From positions 3,100,001 through 3,164,000 of the forward strand of contig CDPCPM010000057.1 of assembly GCA_976551045.1 (NCBI GenBank): a stretch of 64,000 bases of DNA. The letters run 5' to 3'. Position 1 is the stretch's first letter, and each line of letters starts with the position of its first letter. Made by a program: the position numbers and the translations under genes. The notes under the pieces are model-generated. The model saw only the letters and a list, made by a program, of their open reading frames with translations. It made no database searches and was not told the origin of the DNA. Source of the DNA: Glaucostegus cemiculus (lineage: Eukaryota). Below are positions 22,756 through 63,977 of this stretch, in pieces.

Positions 22756-22881
22756 TGAGATAATTGGGATCATTTACTGCTCATTGTTTGATCAGATCAC
22801 TGGCAGGTTTTTTTGCTTATTCTCATGATTTTTTTAAAAGTTGCTTTTGTGCTAATAAGTACCTTCACCATGGCTCTACAG

Positions 22882-32633: not shown

Positions 32634-32759
32634 CATGAGAGAGGACATAATATTCATATTTTTCTGCAAGTCTAGTATTTGGAAGTGAAATGGCTGATGT
32701 GACTCTTATAGGAAAACCAAGCCAGTTCTTTCTTATCGACATTTCAATGGAGAGTTGAG
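32634..32759 (-). CDS. PRG4: PRG4 hemopexin-domain exon
   Basis: ttcag| and g|gtaagt. AQLSIEMSIRKNWLGFPIRVTSAISLPNTRLAEKYEYYVLSH (human: WRGLPNVVTSAISLPNIRKPDGYDYYAFSK). Confidence 0.92.
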
Positions 32760-34355
32760 CTGAAAGAAAGTTAATTAGTAGTGGAAAGTAAATGTATTTT
32801 AATATGTGGCATGAAAGAAGTAGTTGATGTATTTTCCTTTTATTCAGCTGACACAACTCATTGCCCAGTTCAGTGACCCATTTTGGGGAAAAACTCATTC
32901 TGTCTCTGGAACATCACAGAGTGATTTGCTATTACACAAGTGCTTAGAAGCATAGGTAGTGCATTGGCTAATCTCCACACTTCTAGTTCTTATTAGCTCC
33001 AGCCTGCTGATGAAAATTTGTTTTTCAGTGAATGTTGAGTGAAACTCCAAATATTGGCCAGGCAGTAGCTATAACTTCCCCACTCTTTGAAATAGTGCCA
33101 AGGGAATAATCAGGTTCATGCAAGAGCAACAGGACTTAAGTTTCAATGGTCTTGTCTGACAAGCAGCCCTTTCATGTGACAATTCCTCAGCCCTGTAGCC
33201 TTGGATTTTTATCCTCTGGAATAGGATGAACTCTGTACCCTATGACTTTGGATTTGGATGATAACAACAGAAACTCAGCTAATTTGATGACCTGCAACTT
33301 CATAATTGCAGACCATCAAGGCAATCTTCCAGCAACCCCATATACATATGGGAGAAAGAAGAAATTTACTTGGTAATCACTACTAAAAGTAGATCTTGTA
33401 GAAAGAGCTTTCAACCAATGTTCCTCATGTTGACTTCAAATAAATCCACTTAAGTTGAGCGGAATCATTCAACATTATCCAGGCTTTAATGATGCAGTTA
33501 AGATTTATGACAATTCACAGGAACTTTGATTACACCCTAACAGCCAGCTTCTAATTGCTGCCCATTTTCAAAAAGGGTTGCCCTCATTTTGCTCTCCACT
33601 GTTGCACAATTTGCACATCCTATCCCAAAAGTTCATAGCATCTGTGTTTTTAAAGAAAATATGACCAAAAAGCAGAAGGAGAACAAGCAGTTTGGTTTTT
33701 CAAGTTGCTTCTGACCTGTTCCAGTGCAAACTTTTTTTTAGATAAAAAGCAAAATTTAAAAAAGATCCACACAGGTCAATTCACCAATGGGTTGAATCAG
33801 TTGTATCATTCTAGAGCATATCATTAAGTGATTTGCAGCTGAAAAAATTAAGACATCTTAAAAGAAACAATTGCCCTAAATGCTACACAATTATCACTAG
33901 ATCAGTCCCATTCAACATTTGCAAAACTATCACTAAATAACCATATAAATTAAGTAGCAAGAGTGATGGTTATTTTCATGTCTTCTGCAAAATTGTCCAT
34001 TGTGGCATTTGTTGAAAATGTACAAGCTATTGCATAACTATCATAATTTTCAAATGGTTGTACATAATGCCATACTTCAGAATGAGTTCAGAACAGAGTT
34101 TAAATTTTATATTTGCACAACAAATTGAGTTAATTGAGTAAAATTGTTTATTGGTATCTCAATTTTTCTTAATACTTAAACCCCATGAATCTTAACCTAA
34201 CCAATGAGAGAGAATATCCCCAAACCATATTAATTCATTGGACATACAAATATAAAATTTTAATTTTTAGGAAGTTGACTAACTTCGAACTCCACAAACT
34301 GGTTTCAAAACCACTTGCTTTAGCTACTGAATCTGAGCACACAAGAATTTTGTAC

Positions 34356-34505
34356 CTATATTCTGCAGTTTCATGTTTTTTTGTACGCCCACCATTGCTT
34401 GCCGCCTGTAACGTTGCCTTACCACCTGATAAGTGTAGCTACGAGTGCGTTCTTGTGGGCAAGATGTGATGGGTCTTTGATATACATATTTCTGGTATAA
34501 TCCAC
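34356..34505 (-). CDS. PRG4: PRG4 hemopexin-domain exon with furin-type site
   Basis: tccag|. GGLYQKYVYQRPITSCPQERTRSYTYQVVRQRYRRQAMVG... (human: GGSIQQYIYKQEPVQKCP...QVRRRRFERA). The phase-1 donor g|gtacaa is weak, so the 3' boundary is less certain. Confidence 0.85.
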
Positions 34506-34689
34506 CTGGAATATAGAATGCATTTTGATTAATGATGTAACTTTAGTCGTTGATTGACCATTTGTGTATTTACAGTATAGCTGTAGTTGCAAAAAGTGTT
34601 CAGGATGAGTTACTTACGATGATAATTGGCCCATCAGGTCCACACTAGCTGCAGCAGAGAAATCTAATCAGTGCCAATCCACCTCTTAT

Positions 34690-34890
34690 TTCCCACACAT
34701 GCCCTTCAACTCCCCTTCAATCCTAGTTCCACTTGCCTATACTGGGGTTAATTTTCGGTGGCCAATTCACCTACCAGCACACCTTTGGTATAGGAAACCA
34801 GAGTACATGGGGGGAACCCACAGTAAATTCCACCCAAAACAGCACTGGAGGTCAGGATCAAACCCAGGTTGCTGGAGCTGTGAGGTTGCC
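34690..34890 (-). mobile_element. Degenerate V-SINE
   Basis: aggaaaccagagtacatggggggaacccac...ggaggtcaggatcaaacccaggttgctggagctgtgagg is the reverse of the SINE head and V-domain. Confidence 0.6.
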
Positions 34891-35053
34891 CTTACTTGTA
34901 AATAGTCTGATGCTTAATAATCAAATTATGTACATTGGATGACATGGCAAAATACCCAAAATACTGTATAATAGATTGCATGTGTAAACTTCCATTAAGC
35001 AGAAACAATAAAGAGGAAAGATATGTTTACAAGGGAACTGAAAAAGAACTAAC

Positions 35054-35210
35054 CTCTTTTGAAGAAGTACACTGTTTCAGGTCTGTCATGATATGCAGCC
35101 ACTGAAAGAGCAGCTGTTATTTCCCCACTCAATCCTGAAAAGCCATCTGCAATTTTTCGAGGATAGCCAGTGTCCATAGCCCCATTTTGAAATCGCCAGT
35201 ATTGTTCCCC
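35054..35210 (-). CDS. PRG4: PRG4 hemopexin-domain exon
   Basis: tatag| and g|gttagt. GEQYWRFQNGAMDTGYPRKIADGFSGLSGEITAALSVAAYHDRPETVYFFKR. Confidence 0.95.
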
Positions 35211-36398
35211 CTATAAATTCAACAAGAACAAGTGCTATTGGAGAAGTTTCTATTGAAATGCGATGAGTATATTGACACACTTAGTCAAGCAGGTGGAAAT
35301 TCAAATTAAACTTCTGTTGCATTGATAACACATTTCACTTGATTCCTTTTAAATTCATCCTGCTGTACAATGGACAATTTGCAGGAAGATCAAAAAATGG
35401 AACTTAATGTTCCTAACACTGCTTAGTTTTTACAGTATCTATATTTGAATATACTGGCATACTTACCAAGTGGTATTTCCAAGTTAAATTCTGCTGCTAA
35501 TTTCCAAATAGATTTTGCAATGCACTACATTTTGGTAGAGCTGCTATATGCTTCCAGGCCTATGGCTAATACTCATGTTAAACAGATAACTCTGCAGGAG
35601 AATCAAACACAATGTACCTCTAGTTATGGCAGTTGCATTTTTGACCTCTGTTGAATTGTGGGCATGTCTAATACAAATTTACCACCATTATCAGCAGTCT
35701 TGTTGACAAAAAAGACCAACTCATTGTTTGGTGGTATCATTCTAGGAGAGAAACCTTTTTGCTTTTTATCCATACTCTTTCACCACCTCCTTTCTCAATG
35801 GCAGCTTGTGCTAGCCTCAATGCTTGGTACAGAGATAAATGGATAATAGATTGCAAATGCAGGAGCCCAGTTTCCTACACCGACTGATGTGGTCTTAATT
35901 CAAAGGTGTAATTGTAGACCCACGTCTTCATGAGTTTAGGATGCTACATGCATAAGTTTGGTTGTCTTGCAATTCAGATTCTCATAGTTCTTGTGAGCAA
36001 CAACTTTGTAACTGATTGCACAGATGAAATTAAGCAGTAGACCAGAAGCCTTTGGTAATCTAATCTGGATTGAACAACCTGGAAGGGTGTTGGAGGCAGA
36101 ATCTTTAGTAACTATAATTGGATAAATAATTTGCAGAGCCACAAGGAAATGACGGTGTGTGGGACAAATTGATTTTCTTTTTCAAAGATCCTAGGTTAGA
36201 CTAACTTTGTGTTCTGCTTCATTTAGAATAAAAGCAGGAAGAGAGGATATAGAAAATCTTGATTTGGTTTCTTGAGAAAATTCATGAAGGTGTTAAGTCC
36301 ACAGCATTTTGTTTTACAGCAATTACAATCACAATTATGTTATTTTGTTATTAAATTTATTACTTCCATCAGGCAAACAATGGGACAAAGAACCTTAC

Positions 36399-36538
36399 CT
36401 TAAAAAAATATGTATTTCCATTGCAGTTGCACCTTGTGAAGACTGTGTCTATTGGGGATGGAATGCCCCACACATCAGTGATTCTACGAGGGTGCCCTAA
36501 TGTCTGTCCTTTCTGGCTTATTGTCCAAAACAAATGAC
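36399..36538 (-). CDS. PRG4: PRG4 hemopexin-domain exon
   Basis: ttcag| and aag|gtaagg. GHLFWTISQKGQTLGHPRRITDVWGIPSPIDTVFTRCNCNGNTYFFK (human: RRITEVWGIPSPIDTVFTRCNCEGKTFFFK). Confidence 0.96.
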
Positions 36539-37170
36539 CTGAAAAAATACAAGCAAACCATTTGGTGAATAGCTTTGTCAAATGGAAAGGATGACTGGTG
36601 TGTAGGAATATTTTAAATTCTGGTAACTACTTATTAATTACTACCAGGCAAACGATCAACAGTGTGATCAGCTGTGACTATTTAATGCCATTATATTATT
36701 GCCAAAGATGGTTGGATTTAAATTCCAATTGACTTAATCCTGTAGTCTGCTGGAAAACATTGTGCAGCACCTGCCAGTCCCCCTGGTCAATGTGTTGGTT
36801 TCATTTGGGCAGGTGGTGAGCTGCAACATTTCCACTTCAACAGACTTGCCCATTTTGACTGGCATTCACTCACTTTGGATTAAAAAAATATGAGCTACAC
36901 CCAACATTTAAAACATTTCGGTGGGTTAAATTAGCTTGTGATCAGTCCATATATTTTTAATCATGAGTTACTTCTGATATTTGTCCAGAGTTGAGGCTCT
37001 GACACTTTCCCAGAGGTGCAGCCAAACTGTAAATTAATATAACTTTCTGGGGCTGATTTCTGAGTGGCATGGGTTGAAATATGGCATCTTATGTCAGAAC
37101 GTAAAAATAAATATTCAAAGATTGACATTGAGATATTTTGTAAACCTCCAAAGTTTCCTTCATATCTTAC

Positions 37171-37257
37171 CTCTAAAAATATATGTGGTTCCATTTTGTA
37201 GAGTTGTCAGAGCATCTGAAGGCTTCTTATTACACAAATTGGAATCATTAAGACTGT
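37171..37257 (-). CDS. PRG4: PRG4 first hemopexin-domain exon
   Basis: tttag| and g|gtaaga. DSLNDSNLCNKKPSDALTTLQNGTTYIFR (human: DETNICNGKPVDGLTTLRNGTLVAFR). Confidence 0.93.
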
Positions 37258-37735
37258 CTAAAATGATAATTTTAAGAATTATTGGACTTTAAAATCAAGA
37301 AGTCATCCATATTTCATAACAGTTAACATTTATTGAAATTTGTTGTTTCACATTTAGTATTGTAATTCTCTGACAACTTCAGGCTTGTGCTTACCAACAT
37401 CATGTGCCATAGAGGTGCAGTGAGTTATAGCAATTATTATGTTATGCCACATTAATGAAGTGGCTATGTTTCCACAAAAGTTTAATTGTTTTTTCTCTGA
37501 TGCTATCCCACAAATTATTATATTTACTGAATTCAGTTTCATAACTTTTCATGGATCAAATTGAAATCAAGATAATATGGGTTACATGTCCATAACATTT
37601 TTTACTCTTCCTTTGCCTCATTTTACTTGTGCATATTTGGAGCACTTTCGTTTATGTTTTTTTTGTTGTTCTGAGTTTCCACATAGATACCTCAACATTA
37701 ATTACAATCAACAGCAAGTAAATTGTATGTCCTAC

Positions 37736-37826
37736 CTTCATATGACTGGGTTTTCCCAGGTGTCTGTTTTCCCAGTTCTCGATTTGGTTCCTTTACCATG
37801 TTATCACTCTCAGCAGATCTAGTAAC
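37736..37826 (-). CDS. PRG4: PRG4 candidate linker exon between the mucin and hemopexin regions
   Basis: gatag| and g|gtagga; open frame VTRSAESDNMVKEPNRELGKQTPGKTQSYE. Phase 0 in and phase 1 out bridges the mucin exon to the first hemopexin exon. No homology support. Confidence 0.65.
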
Positions 37827-38899
37827 CTATCAAATGAAATACATTTTAGTGCTTTTTCTAATCTAATGGAGGAGGGAGCTCTACTTTTGGTGCTGCTGTA
37901 GATATAGCTTATTTGATTTTTCACCAAAATGGATGATCTTTTCCTGAGCTGAAATGTTCCATAGGACAATGCTACTATTATGCTATTTGCCCCAACAATT
38001 GATTGGACTGATAGGATGTTTTTTCAGTGGGGCATAATTATGATGCTGGAATATCTCAAGCCTACATAAATATTTTAAAAGCTGCATCATGCAAGTCAAG
38101 TGAACCTATTCCCAACAGAACAATTGAATTATGTAGCGCACACTTTCAAAGAAAAGCATTCTGCTTCCAAAAAAAAAATCCTGCCAGAAATAGTTGGAGG
38201 TGGAAGAAATATTCCACATCTCCTCTGCTGAAACCACATCAGGCTGATACACTGCTGCTTTCTTGCATTTAGGGCTTGCAATGTCATGAATTGCTGAAGG
38301 GGTCCTCTCTGCAGATGGTGGGGTGGGGAGTGCCAGCTTGTGTAATTCTACTGAGAGAGCCTAGAGCACTGACCAACTTACTTCTGACTCAAGTGACAGC
38401 TTCTCTCTCAAATATTTGAGAGATTATTGGCACAAAAATCCCTTTTTTGCAGATTTGTGCCAGAAGCAGGAGGTATCAGTTTTAAAATATTTTTCATATG
38501 GGGTTTTTTGGACAATATGCAACTGGATAATAGCTGAATTCAACCTTCGAGGTGGACATCTGAGTTACAAGGTTCACCTCTTTTGGAAATAGCTATTTTG
38601 TTAACAAACACACACTTACTGATTCTGGATAAGCAATGATTCTGCATTATTAGATTTTGTGATATTTAAAATAGAAAAATTGCATTGATTTAACTGTTTG
38701 AATTCTTAGAATTGACAAGCTGTCTTTATTTATCTTTGTTTATATTTGTCCTTATTTATGTTAAGATCTGTTACCTTGTGTTTAACAGGAACATTGGGCT
38801 TTACATTTTCTCTTTTTAAGTTTGAATCTGTGGCAATTGATTCTTCTGTACTGGTCTTTACTTCTATATCGAAGTTACTAGTTTTTGCTAGATATTTAC

Positions 38900-41800
38900 C
38901 CGTACAATTTCCACTTGTTCCAATATTGGATCTGTGGCTACAGGTCTTGCAAGTACAGTGGATTGTGATATTCTTTCTTTGTTTAAGTTTGAACCAATGA
39001 AAGGAGTTTCCTGAGGAACAGTAGGCTGTATTTGTCCCATAATATGGAAGCTTTTAAGATGAAGAGTACTTTGTTTTAAAGTGGGGATTGCCATTCTTTC
39101 TTTATCCAAGAACTTAAAGTTTTGGGGGCCACCTTCTGGAATAGTGCCTCCTTCTTTGTTTACCCTTGGGAACATTGTTACTGCTTTTGCAGTAAGAATG
39201 GATGGTATGGTTATCTTGTTATCTAAATTCCCTGTATCCAAAGTAATAACTTGATTTCGAGGAAGGTGTGAATTTTTTAGATTAGTGATTGCGGGCTTTT
39301 TTGAAAATATGGGTTTTATGGTTTTAGATTCCATGGTCTCACTTTCAGCCACAGTGGTAGCTGGTTTTCCTTTATTCGGATTTTCCAAATACATGGTGCC
39401 GTGATCAGGAGGAATGCGTATTTTTTTGTTTGTGGAATATGAATCAACGGAACCACCTTTCTGAATGGTGGACATTGACATTCCTTCATCTTCAATTTTA
39501 GAATCTGTAGTCCCATCTCTAGGAACTGCAGGATTTGTTATTCTTTCCTTGTCCATGTTTGGGAGCAGAGTTACAGCTTTATTAGGATGAATGGTTTGTA
39601 TTGATTCTGCATAATCTGAGTTGTCAGGAACCAGAGTACTGTTTGGAGCAAAGGAATGCAAAATTTTAGAACTTATGTTTTTCGATCCTTCAGGATTAAT
39701 TGTTTTTGTTATTTCTTCTTCCTCCAAATATTTAGAATATGAGGAACCATCTTCATGAACTGTGAACATTGCCATTCCTCCTTTGGTGCCATCTTCAGTA
39801 ACAGAGGCTGTAGTTAACTCTTTGTCCAAGATATTATAATCTGTGAATTTAACTAGAGGAATGGAGGAAATTATTACCATGTTATCCAAGACTTTGGAAC
39901 TATCTTCAGGAGCAGAGTGTGCTGCTGTTCCTTTACCCAAGATTTTAGAATTTGTGGAGCTATCCCTGTTACTAGAAGAAGCTGTCACCCCGTTGTCTAA
40001 GATTTTAGACTCGATGGTTCTATAGTCAGTGACAGGATACACTACAGTTCCTTTATCTGAGAGTTTAGTATTTGAAAAACCATCGGTAGGAATAGAGTGC
40101 GCTGTCACTCCTTTATTCAAGGCTGTAGAATCTGTGGGACTACCTTTGTTAATGGAAGATGCTGTCACTCCTTTGCCCAAGGTTTTAGATTCTGTGGGAA
40201 CAGAGTTAGGAATGAAGGCTGTTGTCATTAATTTACGCAGTATTTTGGAATTTGTGATGCTGTCTGCAAGGACAAAGGGTGTTGTTATTCCTTTATCCAA
40301 GATTTTAGAACGTATAACCTTATCCACAGGAATAGCGGGCCCTGTCATCCTGTTAACCATTTTGGAATCTGTGGTCTCATCTTCAGAAATAGGAGGTGTT
40401 GTCGTTCTATTATGGAAGACTTTGTGAAAAGATGTTGTCATTCCTTTATCCAAGGTTTTATAATTGATGGATGCAAGCTCAGGAACAGAGGGAGTTGTCA
40501 TTCTGTTATCCAAGGTTGTGGAAAATGTGGAAATATTTTCAGTAACATTTGTAACAATAGAAGCATCTTCAGGAACAGTGGTTATTGTTCCTTTATTCAG
40601 CACATCAGGATTTATGGAAGATTCTTCTGGGATAATGTATGTTGTTATTCCTGTATCAAGGATTTTAGTTGCAATGGAAATATCTTCATGGACAGAATGC
40701 ATGGTCCCATCTTCAGAAACAAAAGATGTTATTATTTCTGTATCCAAGGATGTAGAATCTATGGAACTATCTTCATGACTGAGGGGTGCTGGCAATCCAT
40801 CGTCTAATACATGAGAATCTGTAATCCTATTATCAGGAAATAGAATGTAGGATGTTGTTGTTGTTGTATTGAAGATTTCTGAACCTAAGGAAGCATTTTC
40901 AAGAACAGAGGGAGTTATACCTTTATCCAAGATTTTAAAATCGGTGGAAACACCTTCAGGAACTGAGGACATTGTTGTTTGTTTGTCCAAGAGTTCTGAA
41001 CCTGTGGGATCCTTTTCAGAAATAGAGAATCTGGTGCTTTTATCCAATATATTAGAATCTGAGGAAGTTTCTTTTGGGATGATGTATGTTGTATCCAAGA
41101 TTTGCAAATCAGCAATTCCATCTTGAGGAAAAACTTTAAGCATGCCTTTAGAATCTCTTGTCACCTCTTTGGTAACAAGGGGAGATCCTGACATCTCTTT
41201 GTCCAAGATTTTAGAATCAGTAGTCTGCTTTTCAGGAACTGGGGACATTGTTATTCCTGTATGCATGATTTTAGGATCTGTAGATTCACGTACAGGAACA
41301 ATGGTTGATATTTTACCTTTATCCAAGATTGTAGAATCTGTGGGAGCTACTTTATGAACTGAGGGAACTATCGGTTGCTTGTTCAAGATTTTTGGATCAG
41401 TGGAAATATCTTGCGGAACAGTGGTTGTTATTCCTTCATCTAAGACTTTGGAATCCATGGTCCCACCTTCAGGAACAGACAAAGTTATCCCTGCATTATC
41501 CAAGATTTCTGAACCTGTGGAAGCATCTCCAGCAATAGTGGAAGTTCCCAGTTTATTACCCAAGACATTAGAATCTGTGATCCCAATTTCAGGGTAAGGG
41601 GCAGTTGTTATTCCTTTATTCATGGTCCCATTATCAGGAACAGAAGATGTTGTTAATCCTTTATCCAAGATTTTGGAATCCATGAATCCATTTTCAGGAT
41701 CAGTGGGAGTTGCTGTTCTGTTATCCATGTTTGCATCTTTGGGAAATGAGGATAATATTATTTGATGAAAGGTTTTAAATTCTGTGGTTTCACCTTCTGG

Positions 41801-44800
41801 AATTGAGGATGTGATGATTCTGTCATCCAAGGTTTTTGAATCTGTTAAAGCAACCACAGGAACAAAGGGAGTTGCTCTTCCATTAACTAATTTGCTAGAA
41901 CCCACGGAAGTCTCTTCAAGGAAAGTGTGTGTTGTCATTTCTGCCTCCAAGGTATTTATTTCTCTGGGAGCAAATTGTGGGATAAATGTTTTTTTAGTTG
42001 AGATTTTAGAAATATCCTCAGTAGCGGAGGGCCTTGTTATCCCATTGCTTAGAATTTTTGAATCCATAGCATTGTATTCATGAATAGTGGTTGTCACTTT
42101 ATCCAGAATTTTAGAATCATTGGTCCAACCTTCAGGAATGGAGAGTGTTGTCATTTCTGTGTCAAATATATTTGGAATTGTTGCAGCTGAGCCTGTTGTT
42201 ATTCTTGTGTCAGAAGTTTTAGGTTCTATGGAAGCAGCTATTGCAACAGAAGATAATGACATTTCTTTTTCAACGATGTCAGCTTCAGGAATAGTGTTTG
42301 TTGACATACTGTTATTCAGGATTTTAGAATATGTTGTCCTATCTTGAGGTACAGGTGGCATTGTTATTCCTTTCGCCAAGATTTTTGAATCAGTGGAATC
42401 ATCTTTGGGAACAGTTGTTGTCATTGTTTTATCCAAGATTTTAAAATTGGTGTTCACATCTGTAGTAACAGAAGAAGTTGACATTTTGTCATCCAAGATT
42501 TGAGAATTCTTAGAAACATCCTCAGTAACTAAAGGCATTGTCACATCATTGTTCTGGATTTCTGAATCCATAGAATCATCTTCAGGAGTATCAGTTGTTG
42601 GTACTTTATACTGGATTTTAGAACGATTACTGGTATCTTCAGGAGTGGAGAGACTTTCCATTCCTTTTTCCAATTTACCAGGATATAAGGAAGATTCTTC
42701 TGAGAGAATCTGTGTTGTATTTCCTCTATCCAACATTTTAAGTTCTATGGAAGCATTTTCTGTAATAAAAGCTGTAGTCTTTTCCTTTTCCAAGAATATG
42801 GAATCCATGGTACCATTTTCAGGAACAGTGTCAGTTGACATTACTTTATATGGGATTTTAGAAGACATTATTGTCTCTTGAAGAATAGGTGATGTTGTTA
42901 TTACTTTGACCACTACTTTAGAATTAGTGGAATCATCTTCAGGAACCGTGGTTATTATTCCTCTATTCAAGATGGTCCCATCATCAGAAACAGAAGGAGT
43001 AGTCCATGCATTATCTAGGATTTCAGAATAATTGGAAGCATCTCTAACAATAATGGGTGTTGACAATATTTTGCCCAAGGTATTAGAACTTGTTATATCA
43101 TCTTCAGTAAAAGGGGCGTTCATTATTCCTTTATTCACAGTCCCATTATCAGGAACAGAAGTTGTTGTTATTTCCTTATCTACAAGTTTAGAATCTAGGA
43201 ATCCATCTTCAGGATCAGTAGGAGCTGATGTTCTATTAGTCAAGAATGTGGATGCCGTATTTACATCTTCGGGAGATGGTGTCATTATTTGATGAAATGT
43301 TTTAGAATCTGTGATTTCACCTTCTGCAACAGAGGATGTGATGATTCTGTTATCTAAGGTCTGTGAATCTGTAGAAGCATCTGCAGGAACAAAGGACGTT
43401 GTCATTCCATTAATCAGTGTATTAGAACTTCCAGAAGCCTTATCAAAGGCTGTGTGTGTTGTCAATCGTGTCTCAAAGATTTTAGCTTCCATGGAAGCAT
43501 CTTCTCTGGTAAAGGCTGAAGTCATTGTCTTACCCAAGATTTTAGAATCTGTGGTCACAGCTGCAGGAACAGAAGAAGCTGTCATTTTGTTATCCAAGAT
43601 TTTAGAACCCGTGGAAATGTCCTCAATAACTGAGGACATCTTATTCCCATTATTCCAGATATTTGAATCTACAGAATTGCCTTCAGGAACAATTGTTGTT
43701 ACTAGGTTAACCAGCATTTTGGAATCACCAGTCCTGTGTTCAGGAACAGAAAATGCTGTCATTCCTTTATCCAATGTAGTAGGAACAGGGGAAGCCTCTT
43801 CAGGGACGGTGGGTGTTGTCATTCCCCTGTCTGAGAATTTGGCTTCTATGGAAGCAACTTCTGTGTTAAAGGCTGCAGTGATTCCTTTATCCAAGAATAA
43901 AGAATCTGTGGTGTCATTTTCAGGAATTGTGTCTGTTGATATTATATTATCCAACATTTTAGAATATGTTATCCTATCTTGAGGAACAAGTGACATTGTT
44001 ATTCCTTTAACCAAAATTTTTGGATCAGTGGAATTTTCAGGAACTGTAGTTGTTATTGCTTTATCCAAGACTTTGGCATCCATGGTCCCATCTTCAGGAA
44101 CAGACAGAGTTATGTTTGCACTATGCAAGATCTCTGAGTCTGTGGAAGCATCTGCAATAATAGTGGGGGTTGCCAGTTTATTAGCAAGAATATTAGAATT
44201 TGTTATCCCACTTTCAGGAAAAGGCACAGTTGTTATTGCTTCACTCATGGTCCCATTATCAGGAACAGGAATTGTTGTTATTTCTTTATCTACAATTTTA
44301 GAATCTAGGAATCCATCCTCAGGATCAGTAGGAATTGCTGTTCTATTAGTCAAGAATGTGGATGCCGTATTTACATCTTTGGGAAATGATGCCATTATTG
44401 GATGAAATGTTTGAGAATCTGTGATTTCACCTTCTGCAACAGAGGATGTGATGATTCTGTTATCTAAGGTCTGTGAATATGTAGAAGCATCTGCAGGAAC
44501 AGAGGAAGTTATCATTTCATTAATCAGTGTATTTGAACTTGCAGATGCCTTATCAGAGACTGTGTGTGTTGTCAATCCTATCTCAAAGATTTTAGATTCC
44601 ATGGAAGCATCTTCTCTGGTAAAGGCTGAAGTCATTGTCTTACCCAAGAATTTAGAATCTGTGGTCACGGCTACAGGAACAGAGGAAGCTGTCATTTTGT
44701 TATCCAAGATTTTAGAACCTGTGGAAATGTCCTCAGTAACTGAGGACATCATATTCCCATTATCCCAGATTTTTGAATCCACAGAATTGCCTTCAGGAAT

Positions 44801-47800
44801 AATTGTTGTTACTAGGTTAACCAGCATTTTGGAATCATCAGTCCCGTGTTCAGGAACAGAAAATGCTGTCATTCCTTTATCCAATGTAGTAGGAACTGGG
44901 GAAGCCACTTCTGGGACACTGGGTGTTGTCATTCCCCTGTCTGAGAATTTGGCTTCTATGGAAGCAACTTCGATGTTAAAGGCTGCAGTGATTCCTTTAT
45001 CCGAGAATAAAGAATCTGTGGTGTCATTTTCAGGAATTGTGTCTGTTGATGTTATATTATCCAACATTTCAGAATATGTTAGACTATCTTGAGGAACAAG
45101 TGACATTGTTATTCCTTTAACCAAAATCTTTGGATCAGCAGAATTATCAGGAACTGTAGTTGTTATTCCTTTATCCAAGACTTTGGCATCCATGGTCCCA
45201 CCTTCAGGAGCAGACAGAGTTGTGTTCGCAATATCCAAGATCTCTAAGTCTGTGGAAGCATCTGCAATAATAGTTGGGGTTGCCAGTTTATTAGCAAGAA
45301 TATTAGAATTTGTTATCCCACTTTCAGGAAAAGGCACAGTTGTTATTCCTTCACTCATGGTCCCATTATCAGGAACAGAAGGTGTAGTTATTCCTTTGTC
45401 CAAGACGTTAGAATCGATGTGTTGATCTTTAGGATCAGTGGGAGTTGCTGTTCTATTGTCCATGTTTACATCTTCAGGAAACGAGGACGACATTGTTATT
45501 TGATGAAATGTTTTAGAATCTGTGATTTCACCTTCTGCAACAGAGGATGTGATGATTCTGTTATCTAAGGTCTGTGAATATGTAGAAGCATCTGCAGGAA
45601 CAGAGGAAGTTGTCATTCCATTAATCAGTGTATTAGAACTTCCAGGAGCCTTATCAGAGACTGTGTGTGTTGTCAACCCTGTCTCAAAGATTTTAGATTT
45701 CATGGAAGTATCTTCTCTGGTAAAGGCTGAAGTCATTGTCTTACCCAAGATTTTAGAATCTGTGGTCACTGCTACAGGAACAGAGGAAGCTGTCATTTTG
45801 TTATCCAAGATTTTAGAACCCGTGGAAATGTCCTCAGTAACTGAGGACATCGTATTCCCATTATTCCAGATTTTTGAATCCACAGAATTGCCTTCAGGAA
45901 CAATTGTTACAAGTTTAACTGGCATTTTGGAATCATCAGTTCTATGTTCAGGAACAGAAAATGCTGTCATTCCTTTATCCAATGTTGTAGGAACAGGGGA
46001 AGCCTCTTCTGGGACGGTGGGTGCTGTTATTCCCCTGTCTGAGAGTTTGGCTTCTATGGAAGCAACTTCTGTGATAAGGGCTGCAGTGATTCCTTTATCC
46101 AAGAATAAAGCATTTGTAGTGTCATTTTCAGGAATTGTGTCTGTTGATATATTGTTCAAGATTTTAGAATATGTTATCCTTTCTCGAGGAACAAGTGGCG
46201 TTGTTATTTCTTTAATCAAGATTTTTGGATCAGTGGCTCCATCTTCAGGAACTGTAGTTGTTATTTCTTTATCTAACATTTTAGAATCCATGGTCTCACC
46301 TTCAGGGACAGACAGAGTTGTCTTGGCTTTATCCAAGATTTCTGAATCTGTGGCAGCATCAGCAATAATAGTGAGAGTTGCTGTTTTATTATCCGTGTTT
46401 GCATTTTTGGGAAATAAGGACAATGACATTATTTGGTGAAATGTTTTCGAATCTGTGGTTTCAACTTCTGGAACAGAGGATGTGATGATTTTGTTACGCA
46501 AAGTTTTTGAATCTGTAGAAGTAACTACAGGAACAGAGGGAGTTGTTCTTCCATCAGCTAATTTGCTAGAACCCATGGAAACCTCTTCAAGGAAAGTGTG
46601 TGTTGTCATTTCTGCCTCCAAGACTTTTGTTTCCCTAGCAGTATCTTGTGGGATATAGGTTGCTGTCATAATTTTATCCAAGATATTAGATTCTGTGGTC
46701 ATATCAAATGGAATAGAGGAATTTACCATTTTGCCATCCAAGGTTTTAGAACTTGTAGAAATGTCCTCAGTAAATGAGGGCATTGTCACCCCATTGTTTT
46801 GGATTTTTGAATCCATAGAATCATCCTCTGGAATACTGGTTGCTACTTCTTTATCCAGTATTTTAGAATCATTGGTCTTATCTTCAGGAACAGAGAATGT
46901 TGTCATTTCTTTGTCAAATATACTTGGAAGTGAGGATGTTTCATCTGGGGCAATGCATGGTGTTATTCCTGTGTTTGAAGTTTTAAGTTCAGTGGAAACA
47001 ACTTCTGCATTTGACGCTGTTGGCATTCCTTTATCCGAAAACATAAAATCAGTGGTGCCATCTTCAGGAACAACATCTGTTGATATTATTTTGGAACCTG
47101 AGGAAATACTTCCGGTGATTGAGGGCATTGTTGCCCTGTTGCTCATAATTTCTGAATCCATGAAATCATTTTCAGGAACAGTGGTCATTTTCATTCCTTC
47201 ATCCAAGATTTTGGGTTCCGTGGACCCACTTTCAAAAACACTGGATGTTGTCATTAAGTTGTCTATGATTTTAGAATCCACCTTCCCATCTTGAAGAACA
47301 GAATGTGTAGTCATTCCTGCTTCCAAGAGTTTAGAATCTATGGAACTAACTTCATTAGAAAAGGGTGTTGTGAACCCTTCAGTTAAGACTTCAGAGTCCC
47401 TTGTCCCATCCTCAGGAACAGATAATGTTGTCAATACTGTATCTAGGATTTTAGAATCAGTGGTTTCATCTTTAGGAATAGATGATGGGCTGATCACAAT
47501 GTTGGTAATTTTAGAGTCTGCCATTCTATCAACAGTAACAGCAGACATTGTCGTTATTTTCAACATTTTTGAATCCATGATAGTAGCTTGAGGAACAGAA
47601 GGAGTTATCATTCTGTTATCCACAATTTTAGAATCTTTGGAATAATCTGCAGGAACAGAGGGAGTTGTAATTTTGTTAGAACTAATGGAAGGATCTTCAG
47701 CAACTGATTGCATTGTTATTCCATTGTTCAGGATTTTTGAGTCCATAGAATTATTTTCAGAAGCATTGGTGGTTGCTTTTTCCAGGATTTTAGAATGATT

Positions 47801-50800
47801 GGCTGTATCTTCAGGAGCAGAAAGTGTTGTCATTCCTTTATCCAATATACTAGGAACTGAGGAAGCCTCTTTTAAAGCAACGTGTGTTATTTGTGGATCT
47901 GTGGGTTTGGTTTCTCGGGAAGCAATGTCTGCAATAGGGCCTGTTGTCATCCCTTTATCCAAAAATACAGAATCCAGGGTGTCATCTAAAGGAACAGGTG
48001 ATGTTATTTCTTTAATCAAGAGTTTTGGATTTGTGGAAGCCACTTCAGTAAGAGTGGTTGTTTTTATTCCTTTATCCGTGATTTTAGGATATGTAAACCT
48101 ACCATCAGGATCACTGTATGTTGCTGTCCTGTTACTCAAGATTTTAGAATCCATGGTTCCACCGTCAGGAAAAGCTGATGTTGTCAATGTATTATGCAAG
48201 ATTTTGGAATCCTTGGTCCCTTCTTCAGGAAGAGGGGAAATTGTCATTGCTTTATCCAATATTTTTGAATCTGTGGAAGCAATTGCAGAAACCTTGAGTG
48301 TTCCCAATTTTTTATCCAAAAGTTTAGAATCTGTTACCTCATCCACAGAAAAAAGAGGAATTGTTATTCCTTTATCCATGATCCTATCCTTAGGAATAGA
48401 AGGTGTTGTTATTCCTTGATCTGAGAATTTAGATTTTGTGGAAGCATCTTCAGAAAAAGAGGATGTTATCATTACTGTTGACTGGATTTTTGAACTTATG
48501 GTCTCATCTGCTGGAACCGGGAGCATTGTTATTCCATTATCCAAGATTCCAGAATCAGTAGAAACATCTACATGAACAGAGAAAGTTGTCATTCCACTCT
48601 TGGATATATCAGGGTTTGTGGATGCTTCTTCATGGGCAGTGTGAATTTTCATGCCTGTGTCTAAGATTTTAGATTCTGTGGAATTATCCTGTGGGATAAA
48701 AGCTGTTGTCCTTCCTTTATCCAGAACTTTAGAAACTGCGGAGGTATCAGTGGGAATGGAGGGAGTCTTCGTTCTACTATCCAAGATTTTAGAACTCATG
48801 GAAACATCTTCAGTAATTGAGAGCATTGTCATCCCATCATTCGGGATTTTTGAATCTATGGAATCACTTGCACGAACAGTGGTTGCTATTCCTTTATCTA
48901 GGATTATAGATTCACTGGTCACATCTTTGGGAATGGAGCTTGTTGTCATTCCTTTGCTTAGTTTACCAGGATCTGAAGGAGGCCTTTCTGGGACAATGCG
49001 TGATGTCATTCCTGTGTCCAAGGTTTTAAAATCCACAATCCCATCTTGAGGAATTGTTTTAGAATTTGTCCTCTCAGTTTCAGGAACTTTGGACCACGAC
49101 ATTAATTTATGCAGCATTCTCGAATCTGTTCTCATTTCTCCTGGAGTAGGAGTGGTTGACATTCCTTTATATAAGATTTCAGATTCCATGATCCCATTTT
49201 CAGGAACAGAATGAGTTGTCATTTCAGTATCCAAGATCTTTAAATCGATGGAAGCATTTTCAGAAAATTGTGTTGGAAATTTCTGATCCAAGATTTTGGA
49301 ATATGTGATCCTATCTTCAGGAAAAGGGGAAGTTGTTATCATTTGATACAGGATTTCAGAATTAGTCGCATCATCTGTCATAACAGGGAATGATGTAATT
49401 CCATTATTAGACATCCTTGAATTTGTAGAAGCATCTACAGGAACAAAGGAAGTTGTCATTCTATTATCCAATATATTAGAACCCATGGAAGCCTCTTCAG
49501 AGACAGTGTGTGTTGGCATTCCTGTGTCCAGGATGTTATAATCCATTAACTCACCTTTAGGAACACTAGAGGCTGTTGCTCTGCTAACCAAGGCTTTAGA
49601 ATACATATTCCCACCATCAAGAACAGAAGATGTGGTCATTCTTGTATTGGAGATTTTAGCATCTGTGAAACTATCTTTATCAGCATAATGTGTTGTCAAT
49701 CCTTCATCAAAACTTTTCACATCCCTGGTCCCATCCTCAGGAACAGAGGGTGTCATCACTACTTTATCCAAGGTTTCAGGATCCCTAGTCCTATCCTCAG
49801 ATAATGGGGAAGATGTCATTATTTTATGCAAGATTTTAGATGCTGTGGTCTGACCTTCCGGAACAGAGAGCAATGTCATTCCCTTATCCGAGATTCTAGC
49901 ATACGTAGAGGCAGCTGCAGGAAGAGCAGAAGGTGTCGTTCCACTCTCCAGTATTCTAGGACCAACAGTAACCTCCTCAGGGTCAATGTTTGTTGTCATT
50001 CCCCTGTCCAAGATTTCAGAATGTGTGGAAGCATCTTGTGGGATAAAGGATGTTGTCATTCCTTTATCCATGATTTCAGAATTTGTGGAATAATCTGCAG
50101 GAACAGAGGGAGCTGTCATTTCATTATCTAGGGGTTTAGAACTATTAGAAACATCTTCACTAACTGAGGGCACTTTTGTGCCATGGTTTGGGATTTTTGA
50201 ATTGAGGGAATCACTTTCAGGAACAGTGGTTGTCACTTCCTTACTCAGGATTTTAGAATCAGGAGTGGGGAGTATTGTCATTCTTCCAGGAACTGAGTAA
50301 GCCTCTGCTGTGGCAGCATGTGTAGTGATTTTAGGTTCTGTGGAAGCAACTTTATCGCAAGAGGCTGTGGTCATTCTTTTATCAAAAAGCATAGAACCTG
50401 TGGTCCCATTTTCAGGAATAACTGATTTTGTTATTCCCTGACCCAAGATATTTGAATTTATGGATGCATCATCAGGAAGAGTGGTTGTTTTCATTATTTC
50501 ACCCAATGTTTTACGATCTGTGGATCTACCTTCAGAACCACTTAACATTGTCATTATGTTCTCCCAAGTTTTAGAACGCAACTTCCCATCTTCAAGTACA
50601 GAAGATGTGGTCATTTCTTTATCCAAGTGTTCAGAATCTCTGAAACTATCTGCATTAGCAAAGGGTGTTGTCAACCTTTCTCCTAAGATTGTAATATGCT
50701 CGGTCCCATTCTCAGGAACAGAAGGTGTTATCATTATATTACCTAGGATTTTAGAATCCCTGGTCCTATCCTCAGGGATAGAGGTTGTTGCCACTACTTT

Positions 50801-51897
50801 AGCCAAGATTTCAGGATTGCTAGTCCTATCCTCAGGAAATGGGGAAGATGTCAGTATTTTATGCAAGATTTTAGATGCTATGATCTCACCTACCGGAACA
50901 GAGAGAGATGTCATTCCCTTATCCGAGATTCTAGCATATGTAGAAGCAGCTGCAGGAAGAGCAGAAGGTGTCAATCCACTCTCCAGTATTCTAGGACCAA
51001 CGGTAACCTCCTCAGGGTCAGTGTTTGTTGTCATTTCCCTGTCCAAGATTTCAGAATGTGTGGAAGCATCTTGTAGGATAAAGGATGTTGTCATTCCTTT
51101 GTCCATGATTTCAGAATTTGTGGAATAATCTGCAGGAACAGAGGGAGTTGTCATTCCATTATCTAGAGGTTTAGAACTATTGGAAACATCTTCACTAACT
51201 GGGAGTTCTGTTATCCTATTGTTTGGAGTTTTTGAATTGAGGGAATCACTTTCAGGAACAGTTGTTATTTCTTTATCTAGGGTTTTAGAACCATTGGACC
51301 TGTCTTCAGGAATGGGAAATGTTGTCATTCCTTTTTCCACGAAATCAAGAACTGAGGAAGCCTTTTCTGGGGTAGTGTGTGTTGTTATTTGTGTGTCTGA
51401 GATTTTAGGTTCTGTGGAAGTAACTTCTGCACTCGAGGGTGTAGTCGTTCCTTTATGCAAAGACACAGAATCTGAGGTTCCATCTTCAGGAACAGCTGTT
51501 GTTGTCATTTGTTTATACAGAATTTTTGAATTTGGGGCAGTATCCTCTGGAACAGTAGTTGTTTTCATTCCTTTATCCAGGATTTTGGGATTTGTGGATC
51601 TATCTTCAGGAACATCGTATGTTGTCATTCTGTTATCCAAGGTTTTAGGATCCATGGTCCCATCTTCAGGAACAGCAGATGTTGTCATGGTTTTCACCAA
51701 TATTTTAGAATCAACGGTCCTATCTTCTGAAACAGAAGGTGTTGTCATTCCATTATCCAAGGTTTTAGAGTCCATGGAAGTATCTGCAGGAGAACTAGTT
51801 ATTATTTTATCCAAGATTTTAGAATAATCTTTTCCAATTTCAAATCTGATGGGATTTATGATGGTTGATCCTTCAATTGCTTTAGCACTTCCATTTT
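38900..51897 (-). CDS. PRG4: PRG4 giant single mucin-like exon (12,998 nt, about 4,332 codons)
   Basis: Uninterrupted ORF (ORF track 38888-51814, extendable in frame to a ttttacag| acceptor at 51897). Phase-0 donor cgg|gtaaat at 38900. Ser/Thr-rich. Lies between the SMB and hemopexin exons, where the PRG4 mucin exon belongs. Confidence 0.9.
39400..51830 (-). repeat. Coding tandem repeat, 60-bp / 20-aa degenerate monomer, roughly 200 copies, with higher-order units
   Basis: Consecutive units such as DSKTLDNGMTTPSVSEDRTV, DSKILVKTMTTSAVPEDGTM, DPKTLDNRMTTYDVPEDRST. The + strand repeats tcaggaacag...gttgtcattcctttatccaagattttagaatc. Copy number is estimated as length divided by 60. Confidence 0.9.
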
Positions 51898-52920: not shown

Positions 52921-53097
52921 TTAGCTTCATAGGTTCTTCCTTGATTTTCACTTCATCATACAAATAGCTGGCAGAATCTTGTTGGTACAATGTATCACTG
53001 ATGATCTTGGGTTGCTCTGCTGTTGGTTTTCTTGTGGAGCTAGTGAACAGTAAACTTGATCTTGTTGTTGGGATGAATGTGGGACTTTTCCCGATAT
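52921..53097 (-). CDS. PRG4: PRG4 candidate linker exon after the SMB domains
   Basis: cacag| and a|gtatga; 177 nt, phase 1/1, open. DIGKSPTFIPTTRSS...TLYQQDSASYLYDEVKIKEEPMKL. Occupies the position of the mammalian post-SMB exon(s), but sequence similarity is weak. Confidence 0.65.
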
Positions 53098-54200: not shown

Positions 54201-54320
54201 CTCTTCCACAGTTTGCAACATAATCAGAGCAGCAGTCACCGTATTTCATGCAGTTAGGATCACACTGACATTCTCGCCCGCGTTCATGTTGCTCAAAGCA
54301 GCGTCCAGAACAGGAGGTTT
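54201..54320 (-). CDS. PRG4: PRG4 somatomedin-B domain 2
   Basis: gacag| and g|gtagga. ETSCSGRCFEQHERGRECQCDPNCMKYGDCCSDYVANCGR, 8 Cys (human: ELSCKGRCFESFERGRECDCDAQCKKYDKCCPDYESFC). Confidence 0.95.
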
Positions 54321-54945: not shown

Positions 54946-55062
54946 CTGATGTACAGAAAGTTCTGTAATCTTTGCAACATTCACCATAACGAAGACATTC
55001 ACTGTCACAGTTGCAATTGTAGCTTCGATCGTACTGAGAAGCACATCTGCCTCTACAGCTGT
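54946..55062 (-). CDS. PRG4: PRG4 somatomedin-B domain 1
   Basis: tgaag| acceptor, g|gtaacc donor. DSCRGRCASQYDRSYNCNCDSECLRYGECCKDYRTFCTS, 8-Cys SMB pattern. Confidence 0.93.
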
Positions 55063-55343
55063 CTTCATTTTACCGAAGAAAAAAAATACACAAAATGACA
55101 TAAAACCTCCAGATATTGATCTAATTTACTGAGACGCACTCCCGAGATCATCACAAATTTGCTTATTACTAATTTCTACTCCAATTTAAAAAAAAATTAT
55201 TTTCCAGATATAGCTTTATTGATAAAGAACTGGTGAATATTGTCCGTTTTATGTTTAGTGTGTCCCTGCACTGGAAGACATCAGAGTATTTTAAAATTTG
55301 TGTCATGGTGGCGGGGCTAAAAGTGCCACCCAGCTGGTCAGGC

Positions 55344-55995
55344 AGAGAGAGAGAGAGAGAGCTGGGGCTTCCAGTGGCTGTGGAGCTCCGAGATGGGGAG
55401 GGGGTGTGACTGGGGCTCGGGGGAGGGGAGGGGGTGTGACTGGGGCTTCCGAGATGGGGAGGGGGTGTGCCTGGGGCTCCCAAGATGGAGAGGGGAGGGG
55501 GTATGACTGGGGCTCGGGGGAGGGGAGGGGGTGTGACTGGGGTTCCCGAGATGGGGAAGGGAGGGGGTGTGACTGGGGCTCTGGGGAGGGGAGGGGGTGT
55601 GACTGGGGCTCGGGGGAGGGGGGGTGACTGGGGCTCGGGGGAGGGGAGGGGGTGTGACTGGGGCTCCCGAGGTGGGGAGGGGAGGGGGTGTGACTGGGGC
55701 TCGGGGGAGGGGGTGTGACTGGGGCTCGGGGGAGGGGAGGGGGTGTGACTGGGGCTCCCGAGATGGGGAGGGGAGGGGGTATGTGGATCGGGGGAGGGGA
55801 GGGGTGTTACTGGGGCTCATGGATGGGGTGTAAGTGGGGCTCTGAGACGGGAGAGGGGATGTTACTGGGGCTCGGGGGATGGTGTCACTGGGGCTCCGAA
55901 ATGGGGAGGCGGTGTTACTGTGGTCCTGGGATGGGGGAGGAGGTGTTACTGGGGCTCCGAGCGGAGGCCGGGGGCGGGCAGTGGGGCTCCGAGGA
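55344..55995 (+). repeat. G-rich minisatellite (unit about 28-34 bp) preceded by (GA)n
   Basis: Tandem ggggaggggagggggtgtgactggggctc(ccgagat) units, degrading towards 55990. Confidence 0.92.
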
Positions 55996-58607: not shown

Positions 58608-58701
58608 CTTCAGTTGAGATCACTGTTAGCAAGTTAAATGATGAAACAATTAAAAGAATTGTTTGCCATGTGATGAGATTTTGAGGACTGGCCATCTTCA
58701 T
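58608..58701 (-). CDS. PRG4: PRG4 first coding exon, signal peptide (ATG at 58701 or 58695)
   Basis: MKMASPQNLITWQTILLIVSSFNLLTVISTE then g|gtaagt, a phase-1 donor that fits SMB1. Hydrophobic core resembles human MAWKTLPIYLLLLLSVFVIQQVSS. Confidence 0.82.
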
Positions 58702-61790: not shown

Positions 61791-63977
61791 GCTGGCAACG
61801 GAGAAGCTGTATCCAATACAACCTGGTGCATGACTGATGTTAGGCAAACATCAGTTACACTTAAGTGGACCATGTGTGGAAATGCCCAGGCCAGTTTTTT
61901 GATAGCTTCAATTTCATCCAGAAGTCATCACTGACGCAATCTACTCTGGGTAAAACTGCTTTGTGTATTTGCACACAAAGAATATTTAGGCAAATGGGTC
62001 CAATTTCTGGGCTGCAATTCGCCAAACAATGTTGCAATAAATATAGTGCAGTTAATACTGATTTCCTTTTTAAAAAAAAGGTTAAATTGAAAAGAACTGT
62101 TTAAAATTATGTTGCAATAGTTTAGCTTGCAATAATCAAGTTATACCAATTAACGTCTTGTTATAAGTGTCCAAATGATATGAAAGGGGTATGTGATTTT
62201 CTTTGAACAAATGTATTTGTTTACTTAATGCGCTTTAGGTGGAGAGTAACAGTTCTGCAGAAGCTAAGATTTCCATTTGTATCTGGTACCAATACTGGGT
62301 CCTCTCTTTCATAATCACTTTAAATTCTGTGATATTAGGAGTTCTTGTTATGGAGCACATTCTGCTTAGATGAGAGCAAAGACTTGCATAATGCCTTTCA
62401 AAACTTCAGGCTGCCCCAAAAATACTTTACAGATGAAGTTTATTTAAAATGCAATTATAACAAGAAGCTAATTTTCCTCTGGCTCCAAAGACAACAGTGA
62501 GGAGATGATCAGATAACCTGTTTTAGTGATGCTGCCTGATAGATAAATATGGATCAGATCCTGGGGAAATCTCTCCTCCTCTTTCAAATAGTTTCAGGGG
62601 GTCTTCCATGTTTACCCAAGAGAAGAGAGATGGTATCCCTGACAGTACACCACTCCCTTGGCATTACATTAAAGTATTACTACTTTTTAATCCTCTAGTT
62701 CTTGGAATAGGCTTGAACCCAAAACTTTGACTCAAGGGTATTGAATGTGATTACCTCTTGAACACTGTCATTAAGTCAGCATGAAAGTCCTAAGATTTGT
62801 CTCGCTCATCCTCATCACCTGTTCATTTTTATATCCTTTCTGTATTGAAATCCTTTCTGTATTCATTATGAGGTTTGTAAGTCTTTTCAACAAACCATTG
62901 GATTTTTAAAATTTCTGCAAGTTTTCTCCACTTCCTGCAATTTACAAGCTTTTAATACAGAAGTGTCTGTTGGTAGTAACTCTTTCATTTATCATATCTT
63001 CCCTCTTTGTAGACTTGGTGGTGTTCTGTATATTGGTGTTGGTCATTTATTCAGTTTTTAATTCAAAAACGTATTGCCAATGAAATCAGTAACTCTTATG
63101 TTTAGGATCATTATCTTCTGAGTTTGGAAGTATTTGATCTTTCCCAATTTATGAACCTTAACAGGCATTTAGAGAGGAAATTTGTCTTTGTACTGGCTCT
63201 AATACTTTTTCAATGGGGTTTAATCCATTTCTCATCAAGGCATTTCATTTAGACTGGAGACTATTATTAGTTAAAACGTGCACCTAGTTTCTGATTTGTA
63301 AAAGAGATTGCCATGTATCCCAAAAGATGTGCTGAAAATCACTAATTGTACTAATAAACTGTATTCTCATTAAATTATGTTTTAAGTTGATCATTTATTG
63401 CAACCCGGTGACAGAATCAATTGAATTCAGGACATCAAAAGAATGTAAATATCATAGATTCTGTATTAACAAAAATTGCTGCTATAAAGAAGTATTTTTC
63501 CAGTAATTTGTATCAATATAAATAAAAACATTTGTTAAGTTAATTAATTCTTAAAAAGCAATAATGAATGTCGTAGAATTAACATTGTAAATTAAGTTGT
63601 TTAATCTTTTGAATTGGTCATTCCTGCACTCGGTCTTTATTGATTCAGTCACATGAAATACTCTGAAACATTGTGATATTTTGAAAACATGATCTTCATT
63701 TCATGTAATGAAGTCAAATAGTCAGAATATAGCATATATTCACAAATGTCTTTATGTTGTCAGACAATTAACATGGAGAACTTTGACAGCCTTTTTGAAT
63801 TAACAGCTTTCTTTGGACTAACCTTATCCTATTATAAAATGCTTAAAACTTTTTTAAAAAAATGAATGCTCAAGAAATGTATCAGCAGAAAAACTAATTT
63901 AGTCAATAGTTACGTTGGCAAATAACATTTAAATCAAAAGATCTGAATGAATATTTTAATGCAGTTTAAGTACTCAC

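Follow-up and report, generated by a model that had tools for sequence, protein, structure and literature searches.

How large can lubricin become in a ray, and of what kind of sequence is its central domain built? The question is raised by a 64-kb stretch of the Glaucostegus cemiculus genome (assembly GCA_976551045.1, contig CDPCPM010000057.1, positions 3,100,001-3,164,000; hereafter the window, in whose coordinates positions are given below), on the minus strand of which the lubricin gene PRG4 (proteoglycan 4) contains an open reading frame of 4,348 codons (51,934-38,891) without a single stop. Our analysis makes it probable that this PRG4 orthologue uses two alternative 5' splice sites in its central exon, giving a short protein of 782 amino acids (aa) and a giant one of ~4,780 aa, predicted to be a secreted, unfolded, O-glycosylated and anionic surface lubricant.

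A stop-free 13-kb exon between the somatomedin-B and hemopexin exons

The five alternative frames of the giant exon contain 55-528 stops apiece, the longest open run in 200 base shuffles of the exon is 162 codons, and the window sequence contains no N. With exon ends read from the DNA, a 12-exon PRG4 model has GT-AG borders at all 11 introns, no internal stop, a length of exactly 4,780 aa and a stop codon directly after its final codon. Two claims of an earlier reading of the same letters, hereafter the sequence-only reading, are reproduced by these results: that one stop-free exon of 13.0 kb lies between the somatomedin-B (SMB) and hemopexin exons, and that a 12-exon model of 4,780 aa stays in phase. 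The giant exon is entered in phase 1 and left in phase 0, and a 91-nt exon (phase 0 to 1), which we recognised through ray homologues, brings back phase 1; this small exon is required because the frame of the model is otherwise lost. Selection on the frame, described below, suggests that the exon is included whole in the long form, and splicing of the entire 13-kb stretch as a single exon is a predicted model. Removing the giant exon alone loses the frame (22 stops), while removing it together with the 91-nt exon keeps the frame and leaves 417 aa; no such 417-aa form was present among the homologue models retrieved. We rejected a possible mini-exon of 22 nt near 38,620, as it has no homology and the frame is intact without it.

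The gene is the PRG4 orthologue of a ray

Pfam searches with the window exons gave two somatomedin-B and two hemopexin matches above the curated cut-offs, and zero matches for the giant exon and for one further exon (32634..32759). In a tree of 20 hemopexin regions, none of them from vitronectin, the window sequence is nested inside the rays (99/100), with stingrays and devil rays as neighbours (93/90), and its hemopexin region is 85% identical to Hypanus PRG4. The 2.85-Gb genome contains the large Ser/Thr-rich exon between SMB and hemopexin parts and one other match to the hemopexin exon, of 51% identity, at L002:1363-1900 (G000:C489), which we take to be vitronectin exons. Human PRG4 and TPR are neighbours, arranged tail to tail. 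At the ray locus the TPR N-terminal domain (PF07926) is encoded on the plus strand at contig position 3,093,589, 6.4 kb left of the window, so that the same tail-to-tail order is present. Judged by sequence, therefore, the gene is the PRG4 (lubricin) orthologue of a ray, and the identification made in the sequence-only reading is supported by Pfam domains, tree placement and the TPR neighbour alike.

Short plus-strand frames between 14,000 and 25,000 (e.g. 17,163-17,402) also face PRG4 tail to tail. They presumably resemble 3' exons of TPR, a likeness to which a PDB search with a supposed TPR exon of the window lent no support; Pfam then located TPR outside it.

A conserved internal donor defines a predicted short form

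Homologue searches covered proteins of 30-5,639 aa for the hemopexin region (120 of 178 short matches listed) and of 2,383-7,585 aa for the repeat, and a representative search was run without length limit, with one protein per 50% cluster. Among the matches listed, 11 annotated ray models from 8 species, 523-855 aa long, all leave the giant exon early (a set from which isoform X1 is absent for Leucoraja and the two Mobula species, so that a long annotated form may exist). They align to the first 334 exon residues and then jump to the 91-nt exon, and the exit lies at S-L-[SA]-[VG]-[PR]|V in nine of the 11 and eight codons earlier in two Mobula X3 models. The homologous exit in the window is CCG|GTAGGT at 50,893, in phase 0. 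A GT stands at that position of the repeat in 11 of 192 units, and scored with a rough weight matrix the one at 50,893 is the best (7.8 bits; next 5.3). Use of this donor gives the 782-aa protein, whose full-length identity is 72.6% with Hypanus X1 and 71.1% with Mobula X2, within a range of 52-73% over four full-span comparisons with ray 'proteoglycan 4b' models. The Narcine model runs on for ~150 residues past the first donor site and exits at a second copy of it, and the whale-shark RefSeq model equals the ab initio model over 896 residues before it exits, with the ab initio model reading on for 2,125 aa. RefSeq models usually draw on RNA-seq.

The RefSeq 'proteoglycan 4b' models (Hypanus XP_059840485.1, Mobula XP_062920099.1, Narcine XP_069794287.1 and others) represent the same gene with the same 20-mer, but the 11 ray models do not contain the distal 4,000 residues or the exon tail. 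In annotated ray models, then, most of the exon is spliced out through a conserved internal donor, which qualifies in part the giant protein of the sequence-only reading; we retain the giant form beside the short one.

Inside the repeat we also observed 30 phase-1 donor-like sites of at least 5 bits, among them a perfect AAG|GTGAGT at 49,554. As they are in frame only with the 91-nt exon skipped, further length variants may be possible.

The distal 12 kb bear the marks of a maintained reading frame

Internal duplicates within the exon are 69-93% identical, and the largest duplicated blocks 72-93%. Divergence of this order rules out a simple assembly echo and implies that decay had time to set in. 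At least 2,027 substitutions are needed to connect 148 distal units in a minimum spanning tree; with 2.1% of random changes making a stop, ~42 stops would be expected in the distal 12 kb, and none is seen. Across the whole exon two Cys codons are present where ~25 would be expected. Of 14 gaps in the closest DNA self-alignments, 10 have a length divisible by three, with a 14+1 pair summing to 15, and 29 of the 30 self-BLAST matches listed start in the same frame. The far end of the exon is homologous to the far end of those shark models that include it, and the best matches of the last 1,000 residues are shark models (Scyliorhinus, E 2.5e-78), which argues that this end is ancestral. These observations fit a sequence that would be selected for an open frame, length and composition and not for exact residues.

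The 3' end of the exon

Homology to four sharks extends past 38,900 as far as ~38,760, with the frame displaced by one base, and the identity of this tail to the sharks is 40-53%, against 33-44% for the preceding 120 residues. At the position of the shark donor the window reads AAC|ATAAAT, with no GT. A candidate donor, AAG|GTAACA, is found at 38,774, and the in-frame donor of our model, at 38,899, scores 7.4 bits (the other ten model donors 3.7-12.8). It is possible that the in-frame donor at 38,899 arose through a genuine loss of one base, that the assembly is missing one G in a short run, in which case the exon ends at 38,775 and the protein has ~4,822 aa, or that the long form is newly dead. 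With either the one-base loss or the missing G, the giant form is kept.

The 20-residue repeat and its composition

An iterated profile found 192 units over ~89% of the giant exon, with 141 of 191 spacings exactly 20 aa, and the commonest residue at each unit position gives DSKILDKGMTTSSVPEDAST. All 34 genome matches to the first 200 repeat residues lie inside this one frame. Tandem blocks are evident at the nucleotide level, self-BLAST giving 84.7% identity over 2,960 nt and block pairs being 88.9-92.6% identical. The domain consists of 26.5% Ser+Thr (up to 1,147 residues), 6.4% Pro, 14.2% Asp+Glu, 9.1% Lys+Arg and 3.7% Met, with two Cys; its net charge is -5.1 per 100 aa, its pI 4.65 and its unmodified mass 465 kDa. 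Pro occurs in half of the repeat units. A hydrophobic patch occupies unit positions 4, 5, 9 and 14, with a helical moment of 0.34 compared with 0.24 in shuffled sequence. The sequence-only reading's description of the central domain as an acidic, Ser/Thr-rich, low-Pro and non-mammalian repeat of ~20 aa holds, and the count of KEPAPTT is zero. Its proposal of a domain rich in N-glycan sequons does not: the 45 N-x-S/T sequons compare with 46.7 +/- 6.2 in 200 shuffles and are at composition level, without enrichment. Searches of Pfam, NCBIfam, PHROG and PDB with the repeat returned zero matches, a metagenome scan turned up no relative, and ESM Atlas gave low-score matches only (best 0.83, recognition 749). 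Set against a general PTS mucin domain (high Ser+Thr, tandem repeats, no Cys, no fold), the picture is mixed: 26.5% Ser+Thr, two Cys and low pLDDT on one side, low Pro and a hydropathy above the disorder boundary on the other.

A predicted giant lubricant

We propose that some tissue translates the giant form, since the 12 kb past the first donor are free of stops and frame shifts, and Cys is avoided, although the copies have diverged by up to ~30%. What selection would preserve is the frame, the length and the composition, and not each exact residue. In human lubricin a heavily O-glycosylated mucin domain lies between the SMB and hemopexin ends, as the text seen of PMC7060204 describes; by analogy the SMB and hemopexin ends of the ray protein would bind tissue surfaces and its middle would form a hydrated brush, to which the Ile-Leu...Met...Val patch recurring every 20 residues may add weak chain-to-chain stickiness. 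The choice of splice site would tune brush length ~13-fold, 334 versus 4,332 residues. In mouse, long Prg4-L and mucin-poor Prg4-S isoforms have different roles, according to the part consulted of a preprint (bioRxiv 10.1101/2025.09.15.676417), which also gives Prg4-S as devoid of exons 5 and 6 and the exon 7 mucin repeats. Long and mucin-poor splice forms would be common ground with mouse, but the ray short form would arise at a donor inside the exon. As to tissue, joints are our default guess, following bony vertebrates: PMC4951194, in the text seen, places Prg4 expression in zebrafish and further ray-finned fishes at joints, and in a word search of that text the terms mucin, repeat and shark did not occur. 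AlphaFold2 predicted no fold for two repeat stretches (pLDDT 41 and 35), which, given shallow alignments, is weak evidence.

Several results weigh against this proposal. The giant form is a prediction from genomic sequence; a search for RNA sequencing runs over 34,300-44,200 listed none, a result that speaks neither for nor against it, and three homologue searches and the full representative search returned no giant ray protein. At the 3' end, the shifted frame and the lack of GT at the shark donor position mean that the long form needs either a donor unseen in sharks or a one-base assembly error. Considered singly and by stops alone, block pairs have a P(no stop) of 0.03-0.24 and do not exclude neutrality; once transition bias is allowed for, amino-acid constraint between the blocks is weak, only one of four pairs having fewer changes than under neutrality (p=0.011), and a raw dN/dS of ~0.7 was rejected as evidence of constraint after transition correction. 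The mean hydropathy of the domain, 0.458, lies above the charge-hydropathy disorder boundary of 0.432, on the ordered side, with the horse, frog and bamboo-shark domains on the other side of the line; together with the hydrophobic patch, this leaves room for weak self-association. Finally, the Pro content does not reach half of that in mammals, and S/T-x-x-P motifs number 3.0 per 100 residues against 3.7-5.2 in mammals, so that dense O-glycosylation is not assured.

Alternative explanations

How, then, would the locus look if only the short form were made now? The distal 12 kb would be recently abandoned coding sequence, turned into intron when the 3' end of the exon broke, and the frame shift near 38,900, the lack of GT at the shark donor position and the fact that 11 of 11 annotated ray models are short, with no giant ray protein among the matches listed, all speak for it. 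Yet 12 kb free of stops and frame shifts would make the loss very recent, a few million years ago at most if usual substitution rates apply, and an in-frame donor of ordinary strength (7.4 bits) is available at 38,899; we regard this explanation as unlikely. The opposite arrangement, in which the exon is always included whole and the short ray models are annotation artefacts, produced where short reads fall on repeats, or stem from exons that are shorter in the species concerned, appears to us distinctly improbable. Shark models do contain both exon ends, and the jumps within the repeat do not share one site (Hypanus X2, Amblyraja, Mobula X3), a pattern that misplaced reads could produce, but the same exit is used in skates, stingrays and devil rays, a homologous copy serves in the electric ray, and it is at exactly that place that the usual Pro-Glu codons have been changed into the window's strongest donor. 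That the length is an artefact of assembly has next to nothing in its favour beyond the general proneness of repeats to mis-assembly and, at the 3' end of the exon, a probable or possible error of one base: identity between the largest duplicated blocks is 72-93%, well short of 100%, the window is without N, and 34 of 34 repeat matches fall in one frame.

A further alternative accepts that the giant domain is made and doubts that it is a glycan brush, seeing in it a self-associating or fibre-forming spacer of degenerate paired 10-residue units, or an acidic matrix component. Besides the hydropathy and the regular hydrophobic pattern, it draws on raised self-similarity at lags 10 and 30 and on proteins with T-x-K-I-x-D-x-x-V-T decamer repeats that come next after the shark and ray matches in a search of 1.84 billion proteins and align in register, at 92-144 bits forward against 31-48 bits with the query reversed. 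Seven of 31 unnamed matches of the representative search were inspected, and the three scanned against PHROGs match phage tail-fibre families. Phage tail-fibre decapeptide repeats form a trimeric shaft. The decamer of these tail-fibre-like proteins (PHROG 892, 28766; Pfam PF25296) resembles each half of the ray 20-mer in register, but identity is 22-29%, the ray stretches match none of their family profiles and nothing else in PHROG, NCBIfam, Pfam or PDB, the units score negative on average against the decamer profile, and the permutation P (0.002; 0 of 2,000) is an unfair test because the targets were chosen by their match. Pro in half of the units, a period of 21 in sharks and near-neutral residue changes also tell against a fibre, to which we assign a small probability. 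The decamer likeness is most likely convergence, or chance among low-complexity repeats. Combining these elements, rays and sharks would make a giant lubricin of 3,000-4,800 residues by skipping a conserved internal donor, with a middle of self-associating or fibre-like paired decamers converged on phage tail-fibre repeats; we give this little credence, although, if true, it would mean that joint or surface lubrication was solved in a second molecular way at the base of the jawed vertebrates. Against these alternatives, we continue to favour a two-donor PRG4 gene with a short and a giant lubricant form.

The repeat and the size of PRG4 across vertebrates

Scored with the repeat profile (at least 8 bits), units are present in six of six ray and six of six shark proteins; of 11 bony-vertebrate proteins, ten have none and the eleventh has one. 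The repeat is therefore an elasmobranch feature and not a novelty of this species, and the sequence-only reading's idea that this lineage replaced the brush is not supported. Shark models (Chiloscyllium chiPu_0008213, 3,222 aa; Scyliorhinus scyTo_0008187, 2,248 aa; Carcharodon, 1,657 aa; Heptranchias, 1,054 aa; whale shark, 1,382 aa and, ab initio, 3,021 aa) have the head and tail of the exon and a related, acidic, low-Pro repeat (DSKILDKEGTTKP...) in common with the ray, but their units have a period of 21 and not 20, identity over the array is ~25%, and they are shorter and less hydrophobic.

PRG4 in human and mouse has the same signal exon, two SMB exons, large central Ser/Thr-rich exon, hemopexin region with an NGT sequon and TPR neighbour. 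Human PRG4 has 1,404 aa with KEPAPTT-type repeats (PMC7060204, in the text seen). Five mammalian central domains have 14-22% Pro, a charge of 0 to +7 per 100 aa and 0-1 sequons, against 6.4% Pro, -5.1, 45 sequons, no KEPAPTT and 4,332 aa in the ray. In a composition survey from which five of 25 listed proteins, being unparsed, were excluded, the coelacanth, bichir and Xenopus central domains are also low in Pro and acidic, with ~1.2 sequons per 100 aa, and for this reason the Pro-rich mammalian repeat may be the derived state.

The 0-1 sequons of the five mammalian domains compare with 2.5-4.9 expected, an avoidance found also in two frogs (Hyla 10 against 42 expected, Rana 7 against 30). It is common to Hyla, Rana and mammals and absent in Xenopus, coelacanth, bichir and rays.

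At 4,780 aa the giant form would be longer than any PRG4 among the matches listed. Its size is not unique: Hyla sarda has models of 3,578-3,927 aa, Xenopus tropicalis of 2,685 aa and Rana temporaria of 2,170 aa, beside the Chiloscyllium model of 3,222 aa. Frogs have a central Ser/Thr-rich domain similarly enlarged several-fold, but their repeats are unrelated and zero units match the ray profile.

Relation to published work

A literature search, with subscription journals and supplements largely outside its scope, found no description of shark or ray PRG4 or of its repeat. In PMC7217701 'prg4' occurs in the reference list only; the text seen of PMC11092771 describes the repeat as conserved across mammals and leaves sharks unmentioned there; that of a skate study reports synovial joints with aggrecan and CD44, with lubricin as background only (PMC11856278); and that of a 2025 Primer (PMC11864516) treats as open whether lubricin is expressed in the joints of cartilaginous fishes. 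RefSeq already contains the short form and the repeat as unremarked models; the predicted giant ray isoform and the two-donor arrangement are absent from the sources searched. The finding concerns a variant of a well-known gene, with shark and frog parallels already in databases. For the question of lubricin in cartilaginous fishes, the locus gives a gene model, two predicted isoforms and exact junctions, and ray annotations may omit ~4,000 residues. It also indicates that the middle domain of lubricin can vary greatly in chemistry and length from one vertebrate group to another, a point relevant to the requirements of a boundary lubricant.

Features of the locus

Exons and further elements are collected in Table 1. 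By homology, the first coding exon would encode a signal peptide, and the RYRR motif is a putative convertase-type site. The Ser/Thr/Lys-rich linker exon is not in the Narcine and Rhinoraja models.

Table 1. Exons and other features of PRG4 in the window
Feature	Coordinates	Strand	Evidence and remarks
First coding exon, signal-peptide-like N-terminus	58608..58701	-	79% identity to Hypanus PRG4 aa 1-29; donor AAG|GTAAGT
Somatomedin-B domain 1 exon	54946..55062	-	Pfam PF01033, E 2.5e-11, above cut-off
Somatomedin-B domain 2 exon	54201..54320	-	Pfam PF01033, E 1.2e-12, above cut-off
Ser/Thr/Lys-rich linker exon	52921..53097	-	62-68% identity to other ray models; weak donor, 4.1 bits
Giant repeat exon, long form (predicted)	38900..51897	-	12,998 nt; 4,332 full codons; 192 units of 20 aa
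Short form of giant exon	50894..51897	-	1,004 nt; ends at in-frame donor CCG|GTAGGT, intron start 50,893
Tandem blocks of ~1.1 kb (~370 aa), three near-complete copies inside giant exon	42361..46391	-	Self-BLAST and block-pair identity
Ancestral 3' tail of giant exon, one-base-shifted frame	38760..38899	-	40-53% identity to four shark-model tails
91-nt linker exon, phase 0 to 1	37736..37826	-	60% to Narcine, 53% to Hypanus
First hemopexin-region exon, conserved NGT sequon	37171..37257	-	78-88% identity to shark and ray PRG4
Hemopexin exon	36399..36538	-	Pfam PF00045, E 3.3e-05, above cut-off
Hemopexin exon	35054..35210	-	Pfam PF00045, E 2.2e-09, above cut-off
Exon with basic RYRR motif	34356..34505	-	Sequence read and ray homology
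Hemopexin-region exon	32634..32759	-	77-80% identity to ray PRG4; alone, no Pfam match
Last coding exon and stop codon	29541..29626	-	81-92% identity to ray PRG4

The acceptor of the first SMB exon (55,063-55,085, minus strand) is unusual in that its AG lies ~11 bases past the pyrimidine run (TTCTTCGGTAAAATGAAG|AC). In the intron 3' of the first coding exon, a G+C-rich tandem array (55,381-55,961) has a period of ~30 bp and 16-19 copies, and its minus strand contains open frames rich in Pro. Disrupted retroelement frames with stops and shifts occupy 59,500-62,000 on the minus strand, ~1 kb upstream of the PRG4 start codon, with smaller similar pieces near 22,000-22,800; we take the frames at 59,500-62,000 to be a LINE-type retroelement with endonuclease- and reverse-transcriptase-like parts.

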